From an uncultured Clostridia bacterium (GTDB lineage Bacteria; Bacillota; Clostridia; TANB77; CAG-508): a stretch of 64,000 bases of DNA. The notes beneath the pieces were generated by a model. It did no database searches. It saw only the letters and a list, made by a program, of their open reading frames with translations, and was not told the DNA's origin. The DNA is taken from positions 18,840 to 82,839 of the forward strand of contig CANRGE010000001.1 of NCBI GenBank assembly GCA_947630065.1. Direction: 5' to 3'. The position numbers and the translations under genes are program-made. Shown piece after piece: positions 22,905 through 34,627 of this stretch. The stretch's first letter is position 1. Each line of letters starts with the position of its first letter.

Positions 22905-23600
22905 TTATGATTCCTCCAAGTCTGAAAGATTGATTTCTTTCTTTTTCTTTTTAGTACTATAATATTGAGTTGGGTCATATACAATTGTAAATCTATCTTG
23001 CTCTAATTGTTTTTTTATTGCTTCTTCTACTTTTTCTCTCTTATCTTTTTCTTTTAACCAATAGGCTCTTGATTCATCATAGACATAAGGAATTATTCCT
23101 ATAGAGCCTTTTGATTTTTCAATAGAAGAGTGCTTAATTTCAAAAAAATATTTTAGAGTAAGTAATTGTGCTTTATAATTTATTCCTTTCTTTTTGAATC
23201 TCTCCATTTGAGTAACATTCCATGGACTAACTGTTTCACAATTAAAAAGTTTACAAATATAGTACCATAAAGCTTCTCTATCTTCATAATTCTTATCATT
23301 TTTTGTTAAATTTTCTTGTGTTAAAAATTTTTTTATAGTTGTTGTTGAAATGTGTAACTGTCTACTCACTTCTGCCATATTTTTACATTCGGCGTAAAGT
23401 TGATTGATTTTATCTATAAGTTCTGGTGTTATTTTTTGTTTATTATCGCTATTTTTATTTTCAGAAAATATTCCAGCAACTTTAAGATATTTACTAACTG
23501 TTGATACCGATATATTTAGTTCTCTTGCTACTTGTGATTTATTATGATATTCATTATAAAGTTTTGGAATTTTATCAATAATTTCTTGTGATAAAGCCAT
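22905..23600 (-). CDS. DNA-binding protein with two HTH repeats
   Basis: Duplicated YNEYHNKSQVARELNISVSTVSKYLK and YAECKNMAEVSRQLHISTTTIKKFL. No TAG. Confidence 0.5.
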   Translation of the reverse strand: MALSQEIIDKIPKLYNEYHNKSQVARELNISVSTVSKYLKVAGIFSENKNSDNKQKITPELIDKINQLYAECKNMAEVSRQLHISTTTIKKFLTQENLTKNDKNYEDREALWYYICKLFNCETVSPWNVTQMERFKKKGINYKAQLLTLKYFFEIKHSSIEKSKGSIGIIPYVYDESRAYWLKEKDKREKVEEAIKKQLEQDRFTIVYDPTQYYSTKKKKKEINLSDLEES

Positions 23601-23633
23601 AAAATCACTCCTAAAATTTTATTTTATATTTAT

Positions 23634-23662
23634 ATTATATCATAAAAAAGTAGAAAAGTCAA
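23634..23662 (-). promoter_or_regulatory. sigma70-type promoter, family copy 7
   Basis: Minus strand: TTGACT, 17 nt, TGaTATAAT. Confidence 0.6.
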
Positions 23663-23719
23663 TTTTTTGTTATTAAAAAGAAGTTAAAGGATTATTCTTT
23701 AACTTCTTAATACTCATTA

Positions 23720-24676
23720 TTAAATAAAATCATTAAATTCTTTTTTTATTCTTTTGATTTGTTCCTTAGAGAAATTTGAAAAATCTATATGAGAATTAAA
23801 ATTATCATAATTTAAAGAACGTGATACATCTTGTAGATGATATATAGCATAATTCCCCAATGCCACATTTTTTATTTCACGCTATTCTATATTTATTAAG
23901 CCCCAACTATTTAATAAATTAAGATATAAACGAATATTGGTATAACATATACTATTTGTATCACCATGACCCAAAATAAAACAAATATTCCTTATAGAAA
24001 AATCCTTATCATAAGGTATTGATGTTTTATTTAACTCTTTTAAATATAAGTATGTTCTTAATAAATCTATATTTTGACTATTTACCTTTGCGGGTTTTAG
24101 TAAAATTTCTGTAATTGCTTTATCATAATCTGTTGAAAAATTAGGAGTAATATAATAGTAATCACAATCTATCTTAATTAAATTATTATCACATAATTTA
24201 GCTAACGTATTATAAAAAGTTTGAGTACTTTTAATTCCTAAATTTTTACAAGTTTCTGAAATATTAAAGAAGTTTTTATTTATTCTTAAATTAGTCTATT
24301 CATCTGTTAAAATATTAGCTAAATTTATCATATAATAATATAATAACCACTATTTATTAGTTAATTTAATAGAGGAATTATCAATATTATTTTGACAAAA
24401 ACTTCCCTCGCCTCCAATAGTTCTATTATATCCATTTTTATAGCTATCATAGTAGCTAATCCAAAACTATTCTCTTTCATTTAACTATTGCTATGAACAT
24501 TCTTCTATAACATCAAAAGAAAAGTTATCTATTCTATTTACTTTCATATCCTAATATAAAGGATTATAAAGGTCTTTACATTTTTTATGTTCTCTCCAGC
24601 GTCTTTTAATATCAATAGATTGTCCTATATATACTTTTTTATTAACATTATTAGTAATTTTATAAATTCCTATCAT
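23720..24676 (-). CDS. free-standing GIY-YIG homing endonuclease (318 aa, 7 in-frame TAG)
   Basis: MIGIYKITNNVNKKVYIGQSIDIKRRWREH...NERE(TAG)FWISYYDSYKNGYNRTIGG. AGGTGA RBS. Absent from the ORF track because of TAGs. Confidence 0.75.
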
Positions 24677-24741
24677 TATTATTCACCTTATATAAAAAAG
24701 AAAGTTAAAGCCTATAAGACTCCAACTTTCTTTAGCTAATA

Positions 24742-24813
24742 TCACCGCAATTGGATTTGAACCAATGGTCTTGCCGTGAAAGGGCAAAGTCTTTACCACT
24801 TGACTATGCGGTG
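24742..24813 (-). tRNA. tRNA-Glu (anticodon UUC)
   Basis: Acceptor CACCGCA/TGCGGTG, D arm GTCAAGTGGTAAAGAC, anticodon arm TTGCC-CTTTCAC-GGCAA, T arm ATTGGTTCAAATCCAAT. Confidence 0.8.
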
Positions 24814-24817
24814 AGAA

Positions 24818-24888
24818 TTGCGGAACAAGGAGTCGAACCTTGATTTGAAGATAATGACTCTTCTGTCCTACCTTTAGACGATTCCGCG
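24818..24888 (-). tRNA. tRNA with anticodon CAU (Met, fMet or Ile2)
   Basis: Anticodon arm GAAGA-GTCATTA-TCTTC, T arm CAAGGTTCGACTCCTTG. The C1-A72 mismatch is like bacterial initiators, but the anticodon stem lacks the GGG/CCC run. Confidence 0.65.
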
Positions 24889-24889
24889 A

Positions 24890-24957
24890 ATTGCTATGTG
24901 AGGAATCGAACCTCACACCCTGTCTCGTCGCTAGTGTACTCCTTATACTAATAGCTA
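24890..24957 (-). ncRNA. aberrant tRNA-like element (no foldable anticodon arm)
   Basis: Canonical T arm GTGAGGTTCGATTCCTCAC, D-like GTAT-AAGGA-GTAC, acceptor TAGCTAT/ATAGCAA with one mismatch. Only about 19 nt lie where the anticodon arm plus variable loop should be, and I could not pair them. Confidence 0.3.
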
Positions 24958-25102
24958 ACCTTACTTCATGAAGTATTTTTCATATTAGAAAATTTAATTA
25001 TAATAAAACAATAAACACAAGCGTTCCAACAATTTGTTTTATCAATTTAACTTTACTATTTACTTTTAAAGGTAAGCTGAAAGTTATTAAAGCTGACCCA
25101 AG

Positions 25103-25176
25103 TTACGGTGGAAGGATTTGAACCTTCGGAGTGACGGAGTTAGAGTCCGCTGCCTTACCCGCTTGGCTACACCGTA
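25103..25176 (-). tRNA. suppressor tRNA, anticodon CUA (reads UAG), tRNA-Gln-like body
   Basis: TACGGTG TA GCCAAGCGGGTAAGGC A GCGGA CTCTAAC TCCGT CACTCC GAAGGTTCAAATCCTTC CACCGTA A. The anticodon is at 25141-25143. U1-A72, the D arm and the anticodon-stem GGA/TCC core match the tRNA-Gln(UUG) at 30050-30121. Confidence 0.85.
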
Positions 25177-25233
25177 ATAAATACTTTGAATAACAAAATA
25201 ATTAAAATTCTAAATTAAATAAATATATTATTA

Positions 25234-25851
25234 TTAAATTAAAATCCAATCTTCATCACTAATATTGTTAATGTCTTTCTTTTTACAAGGTAATCCTTCA
25301 TATTTACACCAATGTATAATTGTGTTATCACTAACACCATACATTTTACCTATTTTAACAAATGATGTAGTTCTAATTAAATTTTTTAATTCTTCTCTTG
25401 ACGGTCTATCAACTATTCTTCTACATTTTGCTACACAAGTGTTACATAATCCAGTTTTAGTTTTTTCATAAAGTTGCTTTCCACATTCAGAACAAAAATG
25501 TAAAGTTTTTTCTCTTAAAAGTTTTTTCTTCTCTCTTAATATGTTTGCATAATTCTCATCATATACTTTTTTCTATTCTAAATATTCTACAATATATAAT
25601 CCCGCATGAATTTCTCTATGACAATTAGCACAAACCAAAATACATTTTTTTAATTCTTCTAAATCTTTTTCTAAATCATGTGTGTTTCCTGTTGAAAGAC
25701 CATATTTTTTCTCTTCTGATATAATATGATGAAATTCTAATGCTGAATTAACCTTATTATATCCACATAAGCAACATCTCCCACCTGCGACTTTTACTAA
25801 ATTATCTTTACGCTTTCTTCTATAATTAGAAACATCTGTAGAACAACTCAT
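25234..25851 (-). CDS. free-standing HNH endonuclease with C-terminal HTH (205 aa, 1 in-frame TAG)
   Basis: CCLCGYNKVNSALEFHHI...KCILVCANCHREIH. The TAG at 25573 is followed in frame by ...HFCSECGKQLYEKTKTGLCNTC...IGKMYGVSDNTIIHWCK, ending at TAA 25234. Confidence 0.75.
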
Positions 25852-25871
25852 TATTCCTCCTTATAAATAAT

Positions 25872-25900
25872 ATTATATCATAATTTCTATAAAAAGTCAA
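25872..25900 (-). promoter_or_regulatory. sigma70-type promoter, family copy 8 (HNH gene and downstream tRNAs)
   Basis: Minus strand: TTGACT, 17 nt, TGaTATAAT. Confidence 0.6.
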
Positions 25901-25904
25901 ATAT

Positions 25905-26141
25905 TCAAGATTCCTCTAATGAAGATGGAATTACTCGTATTTGTGTTCGTGCTGTTACACTACATTCTTTTATATCAACTACCTTTACACGAGTGCCATA
26001 ACAAATATAATTATAATTATTATCCACCATTCTAATGATAGAACCTTTTTCTGGAATTTTCTCCTCTTCATTTAATTCATAATCATAAGTTTTGCCACGA
26101 AAAATCTTATTCTTATCTTTGAATTGAACAGTAATAAACAT
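25905..26141 (-). CDS. hypothetical protein
   Basis: Intact 78-aa ORF, AAGGAAG RBS, TGA stop. Confidence 0.5.
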   Translation of the reverse strand: MFITVQFKDKNKIFRGKTYDYELNEEEKIPEKGSIIRMVDNNYNYICYGTRVKVVDIKECSVTARTQIRVIPSSLEES

Positions 26142-26175
26142 AGATAACTTCCTTTCTGTTTTCTTTTATAATAAT

Positions 26176-26204
26176 ATTATATCATACTTTTTCCAAAAAG
26201 TCAA
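26176..26204 (-). promoter_or_regulatory. sigma70-type promoter, family copy 9
   Basis: Minus strand: TTGACT, 17 nt, TGaTATAAT. Confidence 0.6.
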
Positions 26205-26208
26205 ATAT

Positions 26209-26502
26209 TTATTTTTTTATTATTTGTGAAGAAAAAACCTCTTTTGTAATTTTTTTATCAAAATAATTCTTAATAAGTTGTAAGTTTTCTTCAATAAAAT
26301 CATTAACTTTCATAACAGCATCTATATCAACTTCACCCTTAGAACTGACTATTTTTATGGATTTATTGTAAAAAATATGAAATTCTTCACCGCTACTTCC
26401 ATATAAATAAAAATTTATATTATGACTACCTAAAACATTCGGCTCATCAAAAACTAAATCATACTTAAATCCTGTTGTTCTTTTAGAAAGGAAAACTCCC
26501 AT
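26209..26502 (-). CDS. hypothetical protein
   Basis: Intact 97-aa ORF with AGGTGAG RBS. Confidence 0.5.
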   Translation of the reverse strand: MGVFLSKRTTGFKYDLVFDEPNVLGSHNINFYLYGSSGEEFHIFYNKSIKIVSSKGEVDIDAVMKVNDFIEENLQLIKNYFDKKITKEVFSSQIIKK

Positions 26503-26507
26503 TTAAC

Positions 26508-27163
26508 TCACCTATTTAAATATTTTCTCTTTTCTTTGTTCTCATCTGATAATCCCATCAATACTCCTTCTCCATTATCAGCTACAAAAAATAAACGTTT
26601 CCGATTGCTTTCAGATATATAACATTTACAATTGGGTAATGCTCCCATCATATCAAGTAAAAATTGTGAATTAACAGAGATAACATTTTTTCCTAAAAAC
26701 CAAGCACCAGCAACATAATTTTTGGTTTCCCAGTATATTCTGCTTTATGAATTTTCACTGCTGCTTTTAACTCCTGTATAGAGGGAAGTTTAATCTCCAT
26801 GTCATAAGTACGTGATTTTTCTATAGTATCTAAGAAAAGAGAATTACTACTATCATCATCTAATTCCTCTAATTCCATGGGTTCAAAAAATTTTACAATC
26901 CTATAACTATCACAAATATATTGATTCCCATAAATTATTTTTGCACCTAATTTTATATTAGAAAATTCTGACATTTTTTTAGCTGATTTCAAAATACGCT
27001 TTGCGGCAGAGTATATTTTTGTGCTACCTTTTGACCGCATACTTTTTGTACAAATATCTTGTTTTATAGATGTTATTAAATTGTCTAATTCGAGCTTTGT
27101 TGCATCGTCCACTGTGGCAGTGGAGATTTTTACAAGTCTATTAAGCAATACTTCACTTGTCAT
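26508..27163 (-). CDS. hypothetical protein needing a -1 frameshift (or homopolymer correction) near 26719-26723
   Basis: Frame 1 starts at ATG 27163 after AAGGAG and ends at TAG 26693. The -1 frame continues ...NYVAGAWFLGKNVISVNSQFLLDMMGALPNCKCYISESNRKRLFFVADNGEGVLMGL to TGA 26508 with no start codon of its own. The shift site is CCA AAA ATT. Confidence 0.4.
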
Positions 27164-27189
27164 ACTATTTCTCCTTAACAAAATATTAT

Positions 27190-28119
27190 TTATTTTAAAT
27201 TTGCATTTCTTTCCCAAAAAATTCCATCTGCATATCCTTGAATTTTTTTATTTTCATCAGCCATTTCAAGTCTTTGTTCTGTCCATACACAATATTGTTT
27301 CTCTGCTTCAATGCCTAAATAATGTCTGTCAAGTTTCTTTGCAACAACACTTGTTGTTCCTGAACCTAAAAATGGGTCAAAAATTATATCTTTCGGATTA
27401 GAACTTGCCAATATCATTTTGGCAATAAGTTTTTCGGGCTTCTGTGTCGGGTGAGCAGTGTTTTCTGGCATCGACCAAAAAGGGATTGTTATATCGTCCC
27501 AAAAATTCGATGGGCAAGTATCACGATAATTGCTGGAATCTGTTTCAATCCAATCTTTGGGCTTTCCATCAACTCGATAAGGAGCAATAACCTTTTTGCG
27601 GATTTTGACTGAATCAAGGTTAAATGTATAATCATTACTTTTTGTAGCAAACCAAATGTCTTCCATTCCGTTTTTCCAGTTTGCCTTTGCACCACGACCT
27701 TTTTCTCTCTGCCATGTGATTCGGTTTTTGATGGTAAAAAATTCACCTAAAACTCTACCCACAATCAAACTCGTTTCCCAATCGCAGTAAACATATATTG
27801 AACCCGTTGGCTTTAACAGTGATTCTACTATTTCAAGCCATTTACGAGTATATTCTTCGTATTCAGTGTATTTTAGCTTTGTAAATTTTGTATTCCCAAA
27901 TACTTTGCTTAAATTATATGGTGGGTCTGCAATAATTAAATCCACACTTTCTTTAGGTAAATTAGGAATTACAGAAAAAGTATTCCCTAAAATGGTTTTA
28001 TCCAATACCGATTCAATATTTTGAATCGGTAAATCAACCTTGATACACCGTGAAAGATACTGTTGTCCTTCTGAAACAGTAGTATCAATTGTTTTATTCC
28101 TCGTAGATTTCTTATTCAT
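27190..28119 (-). CDS. DNA methyltransferase (N4/N6 family)
   Basis: DLIIADPPYNL, NTAHPTQKPEKLI and FDPFLGSGTTSVVA motifs. No TAG. Confidence 0.85.
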   Translation of the reverse strand: MNKKSTRNKTIDTTVSEGQQYLSRCIKVDLPIQNIESVLDKTILGNTFSVIPNLPKESVDLIIADPPYNLSKVFGNTKFTKLKYTEYEEYTRKWLEIVESLLKPTGSIYVYCDWETSLIVGRVLGEFFTIKNRITWQREKGRGAKANWKNGMEDIWFATKSNDYTFNLDSVKIRKKVIAPYRVDGKPKDWIETDSSNYRDTCPSNFWDDITIPFWSMPENTAHPTQKPEKLIAKMILASSNPKDIIFDPFLGSGTTSVVAKKLDRHYLGIEAEKQYCVWTEQRLEMADENKKIQGYADGIFWERNANLK

Positions 28120-28156
28120 TCTATATCACCTATTCATTTTAATAAGTATTTTGTAG

Positions 28157-28229
28157 TGCGCTTAGTGAGAATCGAACTCATACTCTCTAGATTAAGAATC
28201 TATTGCTCTACCTATTAAGCTATGGGTGC
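28157..28229 (-). ncRNA. tRNA-Lys(CUU)-like gene with three C-A mismatches in the acceptor stem
   Basis: Good D arm GCTTAATAGGTAGAGC, anticodon arm TAGA-TTCTTAA-TCTA, T arm ATGAGTTCGATTCTCAC. The acceptor is 5' GCACCCA against 3' TAAGCGC, with 3 of 7 positions as A-C or C-A. Confidence 0.45.
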
Positions 28230-28262
28230 ATTAAATTTGATTTTCTCTTTTTTACTATAATT

Positions 28263-28291
28263 ATTATAACATATTTTCAAGAGAAAATCAA
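28263..28291 (-). promoter_or_regulatory. sigma70-type promoter, family copy 10
   Basis: Minus strand: TTGATT, 17 nt, TATAAT. Confidence 0.55.
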
Positions 28292-28312
28292 ATTTTCAGT
28301 TTTTTTATTTTA

Positions 28313-28561
28313 TTAAAAATTTTCAATCAATTTTCTGCCACATTCTGGGCAAAATTTTGGAATATAATATCCTATATCTTCTCATTCGCCTCTACTTTCA
28401 TTCCATTTTGAAAATATGACTGTTGTTGCCATATTACTTCCAGATTTTATTTGTATATCATAGTCTTTTAAAGCTATACCAATTCCTATATAACTTAAAT
28501 CATTTTCTGGAGTTAATATTGACTCAACGGCGGCATTACAATAATATTTACAATATTGCAT
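28313..28561 (-). CDS. small Cys-rich protein with an in-frame TGA at 28382-28384
   Basis: The ATG overlaps the RNA ligase TAA (TAATG). MQYCKYYCNAAV...KWNESRGE(TGA)EDIGYYIPKFCPECGRKLIENF then TAA. The 22 codons after the TGA look coding (zinc-ribbon CPEC) but have no start. Confidence 0.4.
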
Positions 28562-29871
28562 TAAACACCTTCTTTCATCAATTCTTCAACTTCTTCTATG
28601 TCAGGTACTTCTGCTGTATCTTTAATTATGCCTTCTAATACCTTAAAGGCAAACGATTTAGTTTTATAAGCTGTAAAATGAGTTCTATTATCAATTCTTA
28701 CTACAACACCTTCAGTAACATGACTACCATTTGCTAAGGGTTCAGGTATATCCAAATATTTTTCGCATCTCTCATTTAAATCTTCCCAAGTTGTATATAA
28801 AAATTTTTCAACAAGCGGCACATATTCACAACCAAATCTTTCACACCATTTTATAGTTTCCTCTGTAGGTAATTCTATAGTTAATCCATCATCATTAGTT
28901 AAAGTTATACGATAGATATAACATTTATTTTCACCGCGGGCGCAACCATAAGTGAATATTGTTTCTTTTCCATACATTTTTTTGAAGTTTTTGTCTTTTA
29001 ACTTACTATTATCACACGTAGGCATTATAGGGGTATTTTCATCTATCCAGCCAACTATTTCTCCATATACAGTCATGCCTTTAGGCAATTTGTCAGCAAA
29101 AAAATTATGATATTTTTCACGGAATTTATTAGAGCCGTAAAAGCCACCATTAAAATTATCAAGAACAACACGACGAGTACCACTAACAACTTCAAATTCA
29201 GATTTAGTTTTGTCTTTTAAATGGAAAAGTTTCTTTAATATTTTATTTCTTTTTATGGTAGTAACCTTTAAAGTATTACTTACTCTAAAAGAAGTGCCAT
29301 GAAGCTTTCTGGTTATGTAGATAATATCATTTTTTTTGAAAGCACTTTCATTGTAAGCTAACTGTGCAGTGTCTATATGTTCTTCAAAGTAAGGGAAGCC
29401 AACAGTTTTGCGAGCTTCTTTTTTATTTTTAGCAATTTTAGGATTAGAAACATTAGATACTGTTTTACCGCGAGGTATATATTTCTGACATATAAGTTCA
29501 CCGTTAAGGACGGCAATTTTGTCGCCGTCAGATAATTTAGTTATGTCAGTATATTTTGCTAATACAGAAATAGGTAAGGCAAGACCATCAGATTTTTCGC
29601 CGCGAAGATTCAAAGCGCGTATGTTTCTTTTGTAAGGGTCAAGATAACCACCAACATTATTTCCATTTTCATCTTTCCTACGAACTAAATTGTTTTCGTT
29701 TGCAAATTTTTCACTAACTTGACCGTCAACAGGAAAATAAACAACTTTATCACCAACCTTATAGTCTAAACCAACTATAACGTTGTTGCCAAATATTTCG
29801 CAGCACTGTAATCTATCTGCATTAGAATGTTTGCGGATTTTATTTATAGTAGTTATATATGCACAATACAT
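28561..29871 (-). CDS. ATP-dependent RNA ligase (N-terminal OB-domain type)
   Basis: N-terminal INKIRKHSNADRLQCCEIFGNNVIVG...VVYFPVDG, motif I ITRKLHGTS, motif IV TEGVVVRID, motif V FTAYKTKSFAF. Sits between two tRNA islands. Confidence 0.7.
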   Translation of the reverse strand: MYCAYITTINKIRKHSNADRLQCCEIFGNNVIVGLDYKVGDKVVYFPVDGQVSEKFANENNLVRRKDENGNNVGGYLDPYKRNIRALNLRGEKSDGLALPISVLAKYTDITKLSDGDKIAVLNGELICQKYIPRGKTVSNVSNPKIAKNKKEARKTVGFPYFEEHIDTAQLAYNESAFKKNDIIYITRKLHGTSFRVSNTLKVTTIKRNKILKKLFHLKDKTKSEFEVVSGTRRVVLDNFNGGFYGSNKFREKYHNFFADKLPKGMTVYGEIVGWIDENTPIMPTCDNSKLKDKNFKKMYGKETIFTYGCARGENKCYIYRITLTNDDGLTIELPTEETIKWCERFGCEYVPLVEKFLYTTWEDLNERCEKYLDIPEPLANGSHVTEGVVVRIDNRTHFTAYKTKSFAFKVLEGIIKDTAEVPDIEEVEELMKEGV

Positions 29872-29909
29872 CTATTTCTCCTTTCATATCTCTCATCTTT
29901 ACTATAATT

Positions 29910-29938
29910 ATTATACCATATTTTGAAGAAAAAATCAA
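29910..29938 (-). promoter_or_regulatory. sigma70-type promoter, family copy 11
   Basis: Minus strand: TTGATT, 17 nt, TATAAT. Confidence 0.55.
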
Positions 29939-29966
29939 ATATTTTAATAAAAATTTTTCTTTTGAC

Positions 29967-30047
29967 TGCGCCCAGCAAGACTCGAACTTGCACGCCATAA
30001 GACATTAGAACCTAAATCTAACGTGTCTGCCATTCCACCATGAGCGC
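29967..30047 (-). tRNA. tRNA-Leu (anticodon UAG), class II
   Basis: Acceptor GCGCTCA/TGGGCGC, anticodon arm TTAGA-TTTAGGT-TCTAA, long variable arm TGTCTTATGGCGT, T arm GCAAGTTCGAGTCTTGC. Confidence 0.85.
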
Positions 30048-30049
30048 AA

Positions 30050-30121
30050 TTGTGGTAGCAGGATTTGAACCTGCGCATAATGGAGTCAAAGTCCATTGCC
30101 TTACCACTTGGCTATACCACA
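30050..30121 (-). tRNA. tRNA-Gln (anticodon UUG)
   Basis: TGTGGTA TA GCCAAGTGGTAAGGC A ATGGA CTTTGAC TCCAT TAT GCGCAGGTTCAAATCCTGC TACCACA A, with a U1-A72 pair. Confidence 0.85.
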
Positions 30122-30133
30122 AAATTTATATAA

Positions 30134-30817
30134 TTACATTAGCCGAGATTTAGCAATATCATAATAATTACTATCTATCTCAATGCCAATGAATTTTCTA
30201 TTAGTGTTTTTACAAGCGATTCCTGTCGTCCCGATTCCCATAAATGGGTCAAGAACTATTTCATTTTCTTTAGAAGAATTTTCAACAAATATTTGCATAA
30301 GTTCTACTGGCTTTTCTGTATTATGCAAATTTTTACCATCTTTACCTTTTGTTTTTACATTCTTAACTGATAATATATCACTCGTTCCACAATTATTTAT
30401 GCGGACTCCTTTACCTTTACGAAAAAACAAAATATATTCAAATGCTGACATATAATATTGCCCCATCACTTTATTACCCTTATCCCAAATCAAAGATTTA
30501 ATAAAATGAAAGCCGTTTTGCTCAAAAGTATTGAGCATATGAATAAGATTTTTATGATTAGTCATTATATAGCAATGACCACCATCTTTAAGAACTCTGT
30601 AAAATTCTGGGGCATATTCTTTACAATCTGTACTGTTATATGCAAAAACATTGCCATCATTAAAAATTCTTTCTTGCAACATACCACCAGTATTACCCGC
30701 ATTTCCTCTTGTAGTAACCTTATATGGTGGGTCAGTAATTAACAAATCAATACTATTATCTTGTATTTCTGAAAAATAATCCATACAATTAGCACATATT
30801 AGTTGCATTTTCTCCAT
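30134..30817 (-). CDS. DNA methyltransferase (N4/N6 family)
   Basis: DLLITDPPYKV, NTEKPVELM and LDPFMGIGTTGIA motifs. No TAG. Confidence 0.85.
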   Translation of the reverse strand: MEKMQLICANCMDYFSEIQDNSIDLLITDPPYKVTTRGNAGNTGGMLQERIFNDGNVFAYNSTDCKEYAPEFYRVLKDGGHCYIMTNHKNLIHMLNTFEQNGFHFIKSLIWDKGNKVMGQYYMSAFEYILFFRKGKGVRINNCGTSDILSVKNVKTKGKDGKNLHNTEKPVELMQIFVENSSKENEIVLDPFMGIGTTGIACKNTNRKFIGIEIDSNYYDIAKSRLM

Positions 30818-30829
30818 ACTTTTTCTCCT

Positions 30830-31789
30830 TTAAGCTACTTTTAAAGCTTTACTTTCTAACAAAATTCTCTTTTCAATAGATTTTGCTGGTAACTCTTTAG
30901 CAAATTCTGTAACTGCATTTATAAAAGCCCATTTACTTGGTGTACCATATTCTTTTGTGTAAGTATTGAAAATAGTAATAACTTTTTCAGCTTCTTTATT
31001 ATTAAGCTGCAACTCTTTAGCAACATATGTCTTTTTAAAATCATCTTGTAATTCTTGAATTGTTGCCGTTTCAGCTGTTGTTTGTGAAACTATTTTTTGA
31101 ATTTCTCCTTTTTTTTCTGAAAGAAATTCCACACTTTCACTAAACTCTGCGGCAATATCTTTTCTACCTCTATGAACAGCTCTGCAAAGTATAAAATCGT
31201 TAATAGGAATTATCATACCATTTTCGCAAACTTGTCTATATACTCCAACTCTAATCTTAAAAGCACTCTTTCCAACCATTGAGTTGTCTATGTAATAAAG
31301 CATATACAAGTTGCTATCATCATTATCTACTGTAAAAGGATTATCAAGGTCAATTGCACGAAGATGTAATCTTTCTGGCGTAGTAAGAGCATATTGAAAA
31401 CGATATTTTGCAAGAGGACTATCATTGATAATATTCATTACTTCATTATCATCAAAATAAGAATATTTATCAGTTACTATTCCATAAATTTTATCATAAA
31501 ATTCTCTGGCATAAAGTTCTCGTTTGTTTTTATCACAGAAGTTTGTCACTCTATCACGTATAATCTTATTTGCAAGTGATGAATTAGTAGTACTAATTTC
31601 TGTGATAAAATTAGCAGGAAAACCAACTGCTTTTCCAAGACTTTTTAATCCATATTCAGAGTAGTTACTTATATTACATATTTTGTCAAAATTAGATGCT
31701 TCAATATGAAAAGTATTCTCTGTATCTGTTATGCTTTTTATAGACTGTCTTACATCATTAAAGCTCATTGTTCTTGATTTAATATTCAT
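30830..31789 (-). CDS. DUF932-like protein
   Basis: 319-aa intact ORF. VGVYRQVCENGMIIP matches the R.vC.NGm signature I associate with DUF932. Confidence 0.5.
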   Translation of the reverse strand: MNIKSRTMSFNDVRQSIKSITDTENTFHIEASNFDKICNISNYSEYGLKSLGKAVGFPANFITEISTTNSSLANKIIRDRVTNFCDKNKRELYAREFYDKIYGIVTDKYSYFDDNEVMNIINDSPLAKYRFQYALTTPERLHLRAIDLDNPFTVDNDDSNLYMLYYIDNSMVGKSAFKIRVGVYRQVCENGMIIPINDFILCRAVHRGRKDIAAEFSESVEFLSEKKGEIQKIVSQTTAETATIQELQDDFKKTYVAKELQLNNKEAEKVITIFNTYTKEYGTPSKWAFINAVTEFAKELPAKSIEKRILLESKALKVA

Positions 31790-31828
31790 ATCAATTCTCC
31801 TTTTTAGACAACTAATAATATTTGCGAA

Positions 31829-31917
31829 CGGTGTGGGTGAGATTTGAACTCATACATCAATAGCTGATTACTGACGGTTTAGCAAACCGCTGCCTTACCA
31901 ATTAGGCTTACCACACC
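31829..31917 (-). tRNA. tRNA-Ser (anticodon GCU), class II
   Basis: Acceptor GGTGTGG/CCACACC, anticodon arm GCGGT-TTGCTAA-ACCGT, long variable arm with ATCA/TGAT stem, T loop TTCAAAT. Confidence 0.8.
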
Positions 31918-31931
31918 TTGTAAAATGATAA

Positions 31932-32031
31932 TGTGGTATGCAAGTCCTGCCCTTGCTGGTCGTTACCTATCGAATAAACGACCTATTTTCGATAGGTTGA
32001 ATATGCGTCATCTCGCCGCATTGATACCACA
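31932..32031 (-). ncRNA. structured RNA candidate X1 (closing stem, two hairpins, H-type pseudoknot)
   Basis: Minus strand: TGTGGTAT...ATACCACA (8 bp), ATGCG/CGCAT hairpin, CCTATCGAA/TTCGATAGG (9 bp) whose loop GGTCGTT pairs with downstream AACGACC (7 bp), and GCAAG-GGCAGGA-CTTGC next to the 3' closing strand. GC-rich island in AT-rich DNA. Confidence 0.45.
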
Positions 32032-32082
32032 TATAATAAACTATTTTACTTTATAACTATTGATTATATGATTTTTATTTAG

Positions 32083-32242
32083 TGGAGCGCACGAGCCTCG
32101 AACTCGCAACCTCTGTCAGCTAACAGCGTGCCTATCCGCGACAATCTACATACTTATGAAACGCTACTTTCAAAGTTTCGCCAAGCTGCTCCCCTGCATT
32201 ACAGTGAGTCTTATACTTGTTTTGTCTATACACCCGCGCCCC
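32083..32242 (-). ncRNA. tRNA-Ala-like / tmRNA-like element X3 (G3-U70 acceptor, T arm, about 107-nt insert, 4-nt loop in place of anticodon loop)
   Basis: 5' GGGGCGC pairs with 3' GCGCTCC-A, including a G3-T70 wobble. T arm GCGAG-TTCGAGG-CTCGT, D-like GCG-GATAGGCA-CGC, stem CTGTT-AGCT-GACAG. About 107 nt separate the 5' acceptor strand from the D arm. Confidence 0.45.
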
Positions 32243-32245
32243 AAA

Positions 32246-32314
32246 TGGTACTGATAGTAGGACTTGAACCTACACATTTGATATAATCATTGTTCTTCAT
32301 TAAACTATATCAGC
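32246..32314 (-). ncRNA. tRNA-like element X2 with encoded CCA and a 3-nt loop in place of the anticodon loop
   Basis: GCTGATA TA GTTT-AATGAA-GAAC A (A)TGAT-TAT-ATCA(A) ATGT GTAGG-TTCAAGT-CCTAC TATCAGT A CCA. Standard cloverleaf spacing except the anticodon loop is 4 nt short. Ends 3 nt before X3. Confidence 0.45.
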
Positions 32315-32467
32315 ACATGAATAAGCTGATTTACCTCACAGCCATTGGTCGTGTTAATTTTATTCATGCGTGAGAACACAAACTCACTACTCTTAACGCC
32401 GAGTCCACGCCTACTCATATTTCTTTTATATCCATATTATTGATATAAATTACTCTATTTTCAGTTT

Positions 32468-32544
32468 TGGTACGCCTTAATGGATTTGAACCATCAACTT
32501 ACCGCTTAGAAGGCGATTACTCTATCCTATTGAGTTAAAGGCGT
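32468..32544 (-). tRNA. tRNA-Arg (anticodon UCU), CCA encoded
   Basis: ACGCCTT TA ACTC-AATAGGATA-GAGT A ATCGC-CTTCTAA-GCGGT AAGTT GATGG-TTCAAAT-CCATT AAGGCGT A CCA. Confidence 0.85.
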
Positions 32545-32547
32545 ATA

Positions 32548-32620
32548 AGCTGAATGACGGACTTGAACCGTCAACCTGTTGATTACAAATCAACTGCACC
32601 ACCAATTGTGCTAATTCAGC
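32548..32620 (-). tRNA. tRNA-Thr (anticodon UGU)
   Basis: GCTGAAT TA GCAC-AATTGGTG-GTGC A GTTGA-TTTGTAA-TCAAC AGGTT GACGG-TTCAAGT-CCGTC ATTCAGC T. Confidence 0.85.
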
Positions 32621-32792
32621 ATAGAATATTTTTAAATATTCCTCTTGTGTACAATTACGACAAGCTTCTTTTTTCGCTTTCTTTTTTTTGTTTTCAATTA
32701 CTTTGTGTCGCGGCAAATCTTGTAGAAGTTTTCTTTTAGTACCAAAATAAAATTGTTTTTTAGTCATTTTCTTTTTCATTGTTACTACCTCT

Positions 32793-33128
32793 TTATTTTT
32801 TATATATGGAGTAATTACAATTTTCGTTATCGTTATCGTTATCGTTTAAGAGAAATATTTCTCTTATACCACTCTCCGTATCATATTTACAAATAGCTCT
32901 ATATTTTGAACCAGTATTTAATAATGTTAAAATGGATTCAAGTCTGCCTCCCCATTCAAATAAGCTATTTGTATAACTTTCTTTTGCTTCAACACATTCT
33001 GTTTCTGATATATAGTTATTATCACAATTTTTCTATGTTTCTTTTATACACATTACAAAACGGTTTATTTGTGTACAAATACGTCTTAATTCTTTTTCAA
33101 TAATCTCAAATTTTATTTCCACATTCAT
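32793..33128 (-). CDS. hypothetical protein (111 aa, 1 in-frame TAG) with (Asn-Asp)3 repeat
   Basis: MNVEIKFEIIEKELRRICTQ...KET(TAG)KNCDNNY...FLLNDNDNDNENCNYSIYKK. The cgttat x3.5 repeat at 32825-32846 encodes NDNDND. Confidence 0.5.
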
Positions 33129-33149
33129 AACCTTCCTCTTTTTATTAAG

Positions 33150-33460
33150 TGCAGGAAAAGGGACTTGAACCCTCACGACCGAAGTCAATGGATTTTCGTA
33201 CCACTCTATGTCACCATAGCCATTTTACAATGTTGTGGTCTGGAGTACGTCTTTACCATATCTTATGACTTAGGTAGTTGGTGTATACTCTCTACACACG
33301 GTTAAAAACCTTGCACGGCGTTCTCTATTCGCCTTCGCCGTTTTAGCCAACTTCTACTCTTAGCGTTTCCGCTAAGGCACTCTCTATTTTTTAAATAGTA
33401 TTACTTAAAGTAACAGAATAGATTAAAGTCCATTGCGTCTGCCTATTCCGCCATTCCTGC
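33150..33460 (-). tRNA. tRNA-Leu (anticodon UAA) interrupted by a group I intron in the anticodon loop
   Basis: 5' exon 33460-33426: GCAGGAA TG GCGGAATAGGCAGACGC A ATGGA CTT. 3' exon 33196-33150: AAAA TCCAT TGACTTCGGTCGT GAGGG-TTCAAGT-CCCTT TTCCTGC A. Joined loop is CTTAAAA. The mature class II tRNA is 82 nt. Confidence 0.85.
33197..33425 (-). mobile_element. group I intron (229 nt) between U34 and A35 of tRNA-Leu(UAA)
   Basis: Follows a U and ends in G (…GAGTGGTACG). Same insertion point as the classical cyanobacterial and plastid tRNA-Leu intron. GC-rich paired segments such as GCCTTAGCG-GAAA-CGCTAAG and GGCG..CGCC. Confidence 0.8.
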
Positions 33461-33475
33461 ATTTTCTATAATAAT

Positions 33476-33504
33476 ATTATATCATAGATTTTTTAGAAAA
33501 TCAA
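33476..33504 (-). promoter_or_regulatory. sigma70-type promoter, family copy 12 (tRNA-Leu UAA)
   Basis: Minus strand: TTGATT, 17 nt, TGaTATAAT. The predicted start is about 10 nt upstream of the tRNA 5' end. Confidence 0.6.
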
Positions 33505-33526
33505 ATATTTATTTTTAATTTTCTAA

Positions 33527-33596
33527 TTTTCTTGGTGGGAGTCGAACCCACATTACCTACTTTATGTAGGTATCCTTCCATTTAGACCACAAGAAA
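33527..33596 (-). ncRNA. unusual 70-nt tRNA-like gene (anticodon loop CAUAAAG)
   Basis: Perfect acceptor TTTCTTG/CAAGAAA, T arm GTGGG-TTCGACT-CCCAC, anticodon stem ACCTA/TAGGT. The loop has A at position 33 and would present UAA on a class I body with a 3-nt variable loop. Confidence 0.45.
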
Positions 33597-33600
33597 ACCA

Positions 33601-33780
33601 AACTTTTAACTTCAATAGATAAGGTGTTTTAACCGACTTGTGTAGCTACATAGCCTTTTAACTTTGGCTAATAATAGGATAAGGTAGCTTAACCGACCAG
33701 ATTTCGCCGCATAACTAAGGGCTATTATTTATCTTTTTAACTTTTAAGGGTAAGGTGTTTTCACCGACCTTTTTGTTTTT
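33601..33780 (-). repeat. three imperfect ~35-nt direct repeats phased exactly 60 bp apart
   Basis: Plus-strand cores ataaggtgttttaaccgac (33622-33647), ataaggtagcttaaccgac (33682-33707) and gtaaggtgttttcaccgac (33749-33767), each preceded by cttttaactt. Each core can form a GGT(N6)ACC mini-hairpin. Lies between a family promoter and the tRNA-like gene. Confidence 0.5.
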
Positions 33781-33788
33781 CTATATAT

Positions 33789-33817
33789 ATTATATCATAG
33801 ATTTCTTAGAAAATCAA
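33789..33817 (-). promoter_or_regulatory. sigma70-type promoter, family copy 13
   Basis: Minus strand: TTGATT, 17 nt, TGaTATAAT. Would transcribe the repeat region at 33780-33601. Confidence 0.6.
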
Positions 33818-33822
33818 ATATT

Positions 33823-34092
33823 TTATTTTTCTGTGAAAATGTAAACATATTTTCCGTCTTTTCTAATATATATTACATTAAAAATGAAATTTTCAGGTTC
33901 TTTGTCAACAAATTCTATTTGCCTTTTCTTTTTATTATGAAAATCTTCCTCTAAACTTTTTCTAAACATTACTTTACTGGCTCTTATGCGTTGTGCATCA
34001 ACAACTTTTAATTTTTCTTCTTCATTTTTCTGTAAATACGTAATTTTTAAAATAAAATGTGCTTTTAAGAAACTTAAATCCATTCTTTTCAC
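33823..34092 (-). CDS. hypothetical protein
   Basis: Intact 89-aa ORF with GAGGTG RBS. Confidence 0.5.
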   Translation of the reverse strand: MKRMDLSFLKAHFILKITYLQKNEEEKLKVVDAQRIRASKVMFRKSLEEDFHNKKKRQIEFVDKEPENFIFNVIYIRKDGKYVYIFTEK

Positions 34093-34106
34093 CTCTCTAT
34101 AATTAT

Positions 34107-34135
34107 ATTATATCATAAAAAAGAGAGAGAATCAA
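34107..34135 (-). promoter_or_regulatory. sigma70-type promoter, family copy 14
   Basis: Minus strand: TTGATT, 17 nt, TGaTATAAT. Confidence 0.6.
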
Positions 34136-34139
34136 ATAT

Positions 34140-34550
34140 TTATTCTTCACCTTTTACAAAATAAACTATATCTTCTGTTTTTTCATTTTCGGGCAAAGCC
34201 TGATAATCTGTATTAGATATTTCTTTATGTGTTATTTTATCTTCTTTATTTTCTAAAACAGTAATTCTGGCTTCATAAGACTCAAAAGTCTTTTTATTCT
34301 ATTTATTCTATTCAGTAATTTTATCATCTAAAGTAGTTTGCTGTCCTGTTAAATCTTGTATCTAACCATCTAATTGTTCTATCTAATCCCTTATTTCCTA
34401 AAATAATTCAGGATTTTCTTTTAATAATTCTTTTACATATTCTTTTATTTGTTCTTCATCTATAGAATTACCTTTTATTGGACGGCGTGCAAAATAAGCT
34501 GGGTCAAGAGTGTCGTCTTTGGTAAAAAATTGTTCCTAAAATAAAATCAC
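34140..34550 (-). CDS. coiled-coil protein with DDTLDPAYF motif (136 aa, 6 in-frame TAG); paralog of 62596-62880
   Basis: GTG start after AGGGAGG. ILF(TAG)E(TAG)FFTKDDTLDPAYFARRPIKG..., then a heptad-like region. Confidence 0.5.
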
Positions 34551-34627
34551 AACTAAAACCTCCCTTTTTAAGTATTGGGACGCGAAATCCTAATTATAAA
34601 GTGAGATTCTTTGTAAAATTATCTAAA

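Follow-up and report, generated by a model that had tools for sequence, protein, structure and literature searches.

Does a tRNA-like gene with acceptor, D and T arms but no anticodon represent a dying tRNA, or is it an RNA that is kept for its shape alone? The element that raises this question (hereafter E2; positions 32246..32314, minus strand) is a 69-nt tRNA-Thr-derived gene with an encoded CCA and a 13-nt third arm. It lies in a 64,000-nt stretch of DNA (hereafter the window), which sits on a 153-kb contig (28.7% G+C) of a low-G+C assembly of 2.15 Mb. The contig is that of a large gut phage and encodes topoisomerase II, NrdD, DNA ligase, RNA ligase and methyltransferases. It contains 11 Rfam tRNA matches, all on the minus strand at 24.7–33.6 kb of the window.

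Read from 5′ to 3′ on the minus strand (32314..32246), E2 consists of (i) an acceptor 5′ strand GCUGAUA with a G1-U72 wobble (32308..32314; sequence and fold), followed by UA; (ii) a D arm GUUU-AAUGAA-GAAC of 4 bp with a single G in its 6-nt loop (32292..32305; Rfam alignment, fold and alignment to tRNA-Thr), followed by AA; (iii) an anticodon-arm remnant UGAU-UAU-AUCA of 4 bp with a triloop (32279..32289; Rfam alignment and fold), followed by AAUGU; (iv) a T arm GUAGG-UUCAAGU-CCUAC with a canonical T loop (32257..32273; Rfam alignment and fold); and (v) an acceptor 3′ strand UAUCAGU, the discriminator A73 and the encoded CCA (32246..32256; sequence). The Rfam tRNA model RF00005 matches E2 at 32249–32314(-) over model positions 1–71 with 50.2 bits (gathering score 29; E = 8.8e-8 for the 64-kb window), and this match skips the model's anticodon-loop positions. 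A whole-model match of this strength shows that E2 is derived from a tRNA and is not a chance cloverleaf. The minimum-free-energy fold is also a cloverleaf, with a third arm of a 4-bp stem and a UAU triloop, and its energy z-score is only −1.5. The third arm can alternatively be read as a UG/CA stem with the loop AUUAUAU. The original prediction of an acceptor, discriminator A, CCA, D arm and canonical T arm is confirmed by the Rfam match and the fold, and its anticodon arm of a 4-bp stem closed by UAU is reproduced in the minimum-free-energy fold. The 4-nt variable loop that it gave holds if an A-A mismatch is counted in the third stem; the variable region has 5 nt if the mismatch is left out.

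E2 lacks the anticodon arm of a decoding tRNA, i.e. a 5-bp anticodon stem and a 7-nt loop with U33, an anticodon and a purine at position 37. Its D loop (AAUGAA) has one G in place of the G18G19 that in a decoding tRNA pairs with T-loop positions 55 and 56. ARAGORN does not call E2 at the default or 80% thresholds and gives only out-of-register nonsense there at 60–70%. In a permissive Rfam scan of 31700–33700, the gene strand at E2 matches RF00005 only, with no tmRNA, YrlA or SpF41, while the opposite strand gives a weak RF04354 (Plastid-ycf2) match (23.6 bits versus a gathering score of 65.7). A weak YrlA match (16.8 bits) at 32519–32576 corresponds to a tRNA-Arg/tRNA-Thr junction, not to E2.

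To which tRNA does this body belong? A covariance model (R2), built from E2 and the truncated homologue described below, was run over 399 genomes of the class Clostridia. Among its best normal-length matches that were checked, 10 out of 11 are tRNA-Thr (CGU or UGU). One Clostridial tRNA-Thr(UGU) is identical to E2 at 57 of 65 positions. Like bacterial and phage tRNA-Thr(UGU) (RF00005), E2 has the acceptor GCUGAU-, the T arm GUAGG-UUCAAGU-CCUA-, the anticodon-stem core UGA/UCA, U8 and A14; it is also tRNA-like in its location in a tRNA operon and in its encoded CCA end. By contrast, its third arm has 13 rather than 17 nt, the D loop is two bases shorter (the GG region) and the variable loop one base shorter, U33-U34-G35 are missing, and the anticodon stem has one pair fewer (one base from each strand). 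The discriminator is A instead of U, and pair 1-72 is G-U instead of G-C. The acceptor, D and T stem substitutions all preserve pairing: pairs 7-66 and 11-24 carry double changes, and positions 13, 65 and 72 are wobble-compatible. Together, the R2 matches, the 57/65 identity and these losses show that E2 is a miniaturised tRNA-Thr(UGU). This ancestry is new with respect to the earlier description. The compensatory changes between E2 and normal tRNA-Thr could be older than the truncation. An origin from a tRNA of the host bin was also considered and rejected because none of the bin's tRNAs resembles E2.

The sole truncated homologue of E2 found among 401 genomes of the host's order is in an uncultured Clostridium MAG (G228; CAYJIP010000015.1, G228:C15:10768–10832), where 57 nt align with 81% identity. 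Its tRNA score is 38 bits, and its third arm (GAC-AUAAUA-GUC) has 12 nt. Its D and T stems are identical to those of E2. In three pairs of the acceptor and one of the hairpin, both bases have changed in a compensatory way, while the two terminal acceptor pairs are broken. The homologue lies between alr and rlmN, i.e. in chromosomal housekeeping surroundings, with a TTGACA-17-TATAAT promoter ending 17 nt upstream and a terminator ∼200 nt downstream. A pattern with both the D and T arms and any third-arm length matched no further genome among 185,579 species representatives, so that E2 and the G228 element are specifically related. The truncation is most likely older than their split. Their flanks were compared as well, and nothing is common to them. 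The G228 element has its own transcription unit (L087:10540–10850(-)), which consists of the promoter, the element, a hairpin, a GAGGA ribosome-binding site, a hydrophobic ORF of 18 codons (MLTTKWIIFKICISLIHL) and the terminator.

The R2 model also found a 65-nt element in another genome (G664; L137:1568–1632(-), G664:C7) with the architecture of E2: its D arm has 4 bp and a loop of 6 nt, its third hairpin closes a UAU triloop with 4 bp, and it has a T arm. Elements of this kind form a family that is independent of E2 but analogous to it, and they lie between sigH and a zinc-ribbon gene. The sigH-linked locus was matched in 57 of the 121 genomes searched of that Clostridia family, and among the 30 loci retrieved (L137–L166) R2 found the element in 24 genomes from at least eight genera. 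The elements are ∼60–70 nt long and have a third hairpin of 3–5 bp (often 4 bp with UAU) and a T loop UGCRARU. In an alignment of 26 sequences (A5), 98.2% of cells are paired, and compensatory changes occur in 16 of the 20 pairs, among them all four of the short hairpin; pairing drops to 27–51% in slid-partner controls. Rfam sees these elements weakly, and as RF00005 only. This shows that tRNA shapes with an amputated anticodon arm are held by selection in this bacterial class, although it does not thereby prove a function of E2. In other bacteria a tRNA-Thr stands ahead of the tuf/secE/nusG region, and the sigH-linked elements may be derived from it.

The surroundings of E2 are those of a tRNA operon. 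On the minus strand, the run consists of tRNA-Thr(UGU), tRNA-Arg(UCU), a 47-nt spacer, E1, E2, E3, an AT-rich spacer, E4 and tRNA-Ser. The first two are genuine tRNAs just upstream of E2 in the same operon (32468..32620, minus strand; ARAGORN and Rfam), and the intact tRNA-Thr(UGU) lies 233 nt upstream of E2. E1 (32315..32420, minus strand) folds into a 106-nt structured RNA whose 12-bp closing stem is flush with the 5′ end of E2; its fold z-score is weak (−1.6). E3 (32083..32242, minus strand), which was earlier named X3, is a 160-nt RNA that folds with an acceptor stem (GGGGCGC/GCGCUCC) containing a G3-U70 pair, a T arm and a tetraloop stem (CUGUU-AGCU-GACAG). It begins 3 nt past the CCA of E2; the sequence and fold agree with the original prediction in both this distance and the tetraloop. 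The E1–E2 spacer is 0–2 nt, so that E2 is spaced from its neighbours as the genuine tRNAs are among themselves. Upstream of E2, a promoter/terminator scan places the nearest strong promoter-like site, TTGATT-17-TG-TATAAT, at 33476..33504 (minus strand), and in the stretch from 33504 to E2 the scan found no further strong promoter-like site and no terminator-like site.

Four things can be read from the sequences themselves, namely that E2 descends from a tRNA, that it is truncated, that it is tightly packed between its neighbours and that it has a truncated homologue differing by compensatory changes. What they amount to can be put forward with a little less than even confidence: E2 may be a non-decoding tRNA mimic that is excised from the operon transcript by RNase P and 3′ trimming, which would set the ends of its neighbours. 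A tRNA-Thr(UGU) gene would have evolved into this mimic by keeping what RNase P and 3′ maturation read (i.e. the 7-bp acceptor/T-arm stack, U8/A14, the D stem and the encoded ACCA) and by losing what decoding needs (i.e. U33, anticodon positions 34 and 35, a pair of the anticodon stem and, in the D loop, the G18G19 region). The lost features are also those needed for anticodon-dependent charging; ThrRS depends on G35 and U36. E2 would be transcribed within the polycistronic tRNA operon of the phage, host RNase P would cleave at its 5′ end, and 3′ trimming would halt at the encoded CCA. Given the short spacers on either side, the same excision would make the 3′ end of E1 and free the 5′ end of E3. 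Against this reading, the D loop has lost G19, which weakens the elbow, a contact of the RNase P specificity domain. The suggestion that E2 serves as a substrate of CCA-adding enzymes is not needed because its CCA is encoded and the phage contig contains no CCA-adding enzyme; the single copy in the assembly is on host contig C10.

Several known RNAs resemble the proposed mimic in part. The stable ‘species 1/2’ RNAs of the phage T4 tRNA cluster and the Bacillus cereus pseudo-tRNA ‘tRNA-Other’ are non-decoding, lie among or alongside tRNA genes and are matured by the tRNA machinery. They have no sequence similarity to E2, their architectures are different and their functions are poorly defined. 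In plant mitochondrial t-elements and mitochondrial tRNA punctuation, tRNA-like structures act as RNase P/Z cleavage signals between transcripts. The t-elements are usually partial (acceptor and T arm) and lie beside mRNAs, whereas E2 is a nearly complete cloverleaf between non-coding RNAs. The mascRNA and MEN-beta RNAs (RF01684) share with the proposed mimic a non-decoding tRNA shape and a CCA end, and they are excised by tRNA-processing enzymes from a longer transcript, which defines the end of the neighbouring RNA (PMC8457004), as is proposed for E2. However, these are eukaryotic nuclear RNAs of unrelated sequence to which CCA is added post-transcriptionally, whereas the CCA of E2 is encoded.

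Conservation among phages bears directly on whether E2 is kept or decaying. In five other assemblies of the same phage, E2 has the identical sequence, so these are uninformative on this point. No E2 orthologue was found in phages that share the RNA ligase (76% and 45–53% identity) and carry 19–34 normal tRNAs each. In the true relatives by helicase synteny, which have 60–67% helicase identity and the same lysin-helicase-DnaB order, the whole ∼11-kb tRNA/DUF932/methylase/RNA-ligase island is absent, so that these relatives offer no loop at this locus, intact or shortened, to compare with that of E2, and relatives by DUF932 have no tRNA array nearby. When IMG/VR, GTDB genomes and JGI metagenomes were searched with exact and degenerate patterns, the sole matches were the G228 element and three tRNA-Met(CAU) genes of normal form, whose D and T arms resemble those of E2. 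BLAST of E2 against cultured phages gave T-arm/acceptor matches only, and a match in one further genome (G327) was discarded as coding sequence. The ligase also occurs in unrelated small phages, in which no E2-like gene was found either, and it behaves as a mobile cassette.

The island itself occupies window positions 23600–34600 and contains tRNAs, DUF932, methylases, RNA ligase and GIY-YIG. It is bordered by a helicase-155-aa gene pair and an HTH-DnaB pair; between these two pairs, syntenic relatives (L111, L112 and L113) have one ∼241-aa gene in place of the island.

These results leave some room for the view that E2 is a dead gene, i.e. a duplicated tRNA-Thr(UGU) that lost its anticodon by small deletions and is now drifting, its good stems reflecting recent damage. 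We consider this unlikely, yet worth weighing. E2 is unable to decode, its D loop is also without G18/G19, an intact tRNA-Thr(UGU) stands close upstream, the region is a variable accessory island and the related phages examined contain no orthologue. Furthermore, the ∼12 tRNA genes here compared with 19–34 in the phages that share the RNA ligase make tRNA loss possible. However, the path from the tRNA-Thr(UGU) arm to that of E2 requires about five separate indels, and yet the outcome is a clean hairpin beside three other stems that are perfectly paired. Random drift would also have to account for the diverged G228 homologue, which has the same truncation together with compensatory differences, and for the retention of CCA and discriminator in E2; truncated tRNA shapes are, moreover, demonstrably selected elsewhere in Clostridia. 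The original prediction of function rather than decay gains indirect support from the truncated homologue with its compensatory changes, the covarying sigH-linked family and the 2–3-nt packing, which stops short of proof as long as no related phage shows an orthologue. Selection on E2 itself is an inference.

A second alternative, which we regard as improbable, is that E2 imitates tRNA-Thr, resists cleavage, and binds and blocks a defence enzyme, of the host or of a prophage, directed against tRNA-Thr(UGU) or the acceptor end. Speculative examples of such targets are an OLD/TOPRIM-type nuclease that cuts the anticodon stem and a CCA-end-modifying toxin. Killing by P2-OLD results from cleavage of the tRNA-Thr(UGU) anticodon stem on both strands, and phage tRNA-Thr(UGU) genes rescue the cell, with resistance to cleavage due partly to a shorter anticodon stem (PMC12445682). 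More generally, phage tRNAs are known to counter tRNA-targeting defences (PMC10264068, PMC11464382, PMC11555353). E2 has a tRNA-Thr(UGU)-like body, and its island also contains an RNA ligase and an intact tRNA-Thr(UGU). Like the P2-OLD-resistant variants, E2 is phage-encoded and has an anticodon stem shorter than that of the host tRNA; by contrast, the resistant variants keep a normal anticodon loop, decode and replace the cleaved host tRNA (PMC12445682), whereas E2 cannot decode. The case is circumstantial, and no such nuclease is identified in the presumed host. Known phage countermeasures substitute the cleaved tRNA and do not titrate the enzyme, and stoichiometric titration would demand high E2 expression. 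A decoy for anticodon-loop nucleases would have to present the anticodon stem-loop that they recognise; this role is disfavoured since E2 has no anticodon loop and cannot mimic a loop-specific substrate. It is possible, however, that E2 blocks enzymes whose recognition depends on the anticodon stem, the acceptor end or the body of the tRNA.

A broader and quite doubtful version of this idea is that E2, the G228 element and the sigH-linked elements form an uncatalogued class of ‘amputated’ tRNA-Thr mimics, distributed over Clostridia and their phages, in which the tRNA body is selected without the anticodon. The phage member would be a competitor that resists cleavage and thereby protects tRNA-Thr(UGU), or the translation apparatus, against a defence enzyme that is of the OLD/TOPRIM type or targets the acceptor end. 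If this were true, E2 would be an RNA-based anti-defence factor and not a spare tRNA.

Finally, it is hardly credible that E2 decodes AUA (Ile) codons through a 2-bp UG/CA anticodon stem with U33, the anticodon UAU and A37 in the loop AUUAUAU. The loop does offer U at 33 and A at 37, tRNA-Ile(UAU) is present in four of the five RNA-ligase-sharing phages compared (G061, G062, G063 and G065) but not in this one, and at 29% G+C the genome is expected to use AUA commonly. However, an arm shortened by 4 nt does not reach from the decoding centre to the peptidyl-transferase centre, folding favours the triloop on a 4-bp stem, the body is Thr-like and not Ile-like, and to our knowledge no tRNA with a 2–3-bp anticodon stem functions on the bacterial ribosome.

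Phage tRNA genes are now seen both as codon supplements and as weapons against tRNA-cleaving defences. A phage gene with a tRNA-Thr body minus the anticodon fits neither role. If E2 is functional, phages would exploit the tRNA shape itself, as a processing signal for neighbouring small RNAs or as a protein-binding mimic. The sigH-linked family is possibly as important as E2; it is conserved with strong covariation in many Clostridia and has only weak tRNA matches in Rfam. Annotation pipelines overlook such elements, as ARAGORN does, or would label them tRNA or pseudogene.

Other RNAs of the array are also unusual. E4 (31925–32032(-)) is a cloverleaf-like RNA with a 4-way junction, a fold z-score of −4.0 and a possible pseudoknot (GGUCGUU with AACGACC); one variant assembly (L007:1–295) has a C-to-U change that turns a G-C pair of the first hairpin into G-U and keeps the pairing. 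The 50-nt AT-rich spacer 3′ of E3 has matches in many host genomes, which were dismissed as low-complexity similarity. A second odd tRNA (33527–33597(-)) has a class I body without CCA and a 15-nt anticodon arm (CCUAC-AUAAA-GUAGG), which forms either a 5-bp stem with a 5-nt loop or a 4-bp stem with the loop CAUAAAG (A33, ‘UAA’). At 33148–33463(-), a tRNA-Leu(UAA) has an anticodon loop interrupted by a ∼230-nt insert resembling a group I intron; this split gene is called neither by ARAGORN nor by Rfam at the gathering threshold.

The phages that share the RNA ligase have tRNA-like elements of their own. The tRNA array of one of them (G065) contains a 60-nt tRNA-like gene (L058:2339–2398; RF00005, 30 bits) with an anticodon arm of ∼9 nt (CC-CGGAA-GG). 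Three others (G062, G063 and G064) have in common an almost acceptor-less tRNA-like element (L054:2380–2439, L056:13600–13662 and L057:10989–11051, respectively) with the flanks GAGUAG...CUAAAAAU. Its T stem covaries between G063 and G064, in both of which it lies just upstream of tRNA-Ser(UGA), and its third arm in G062 is a 6-bp stem with a tetraloop. In smaller phages (L104–L107), the RNA ligase (75–77% identity) is part of a cassette that also contains RlaP, an uncharacterised 314-aa protein and a CCA-adding enzyme; in two of three phages (L106 and L107), a KTI12/AAA_33 kinase is near the cassette. The ligase/RlaP/CCA-adding cassette looks like an RNA-repair module, from which the present phage carries the ligase only.

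The helicase genes of the syntenic relatives (L111–L114) are translatable only with TAG read as Gln. Read with table 11, the window ORF at 32796–33128(-) is interrupted by a single in-frame stop; it was scanned with TAG as Gln, and the phage encodes a tRNA(CUA) at 25102–25176. At the level of sequence, these three observations are compatible with TAG-to-Gln recoding.
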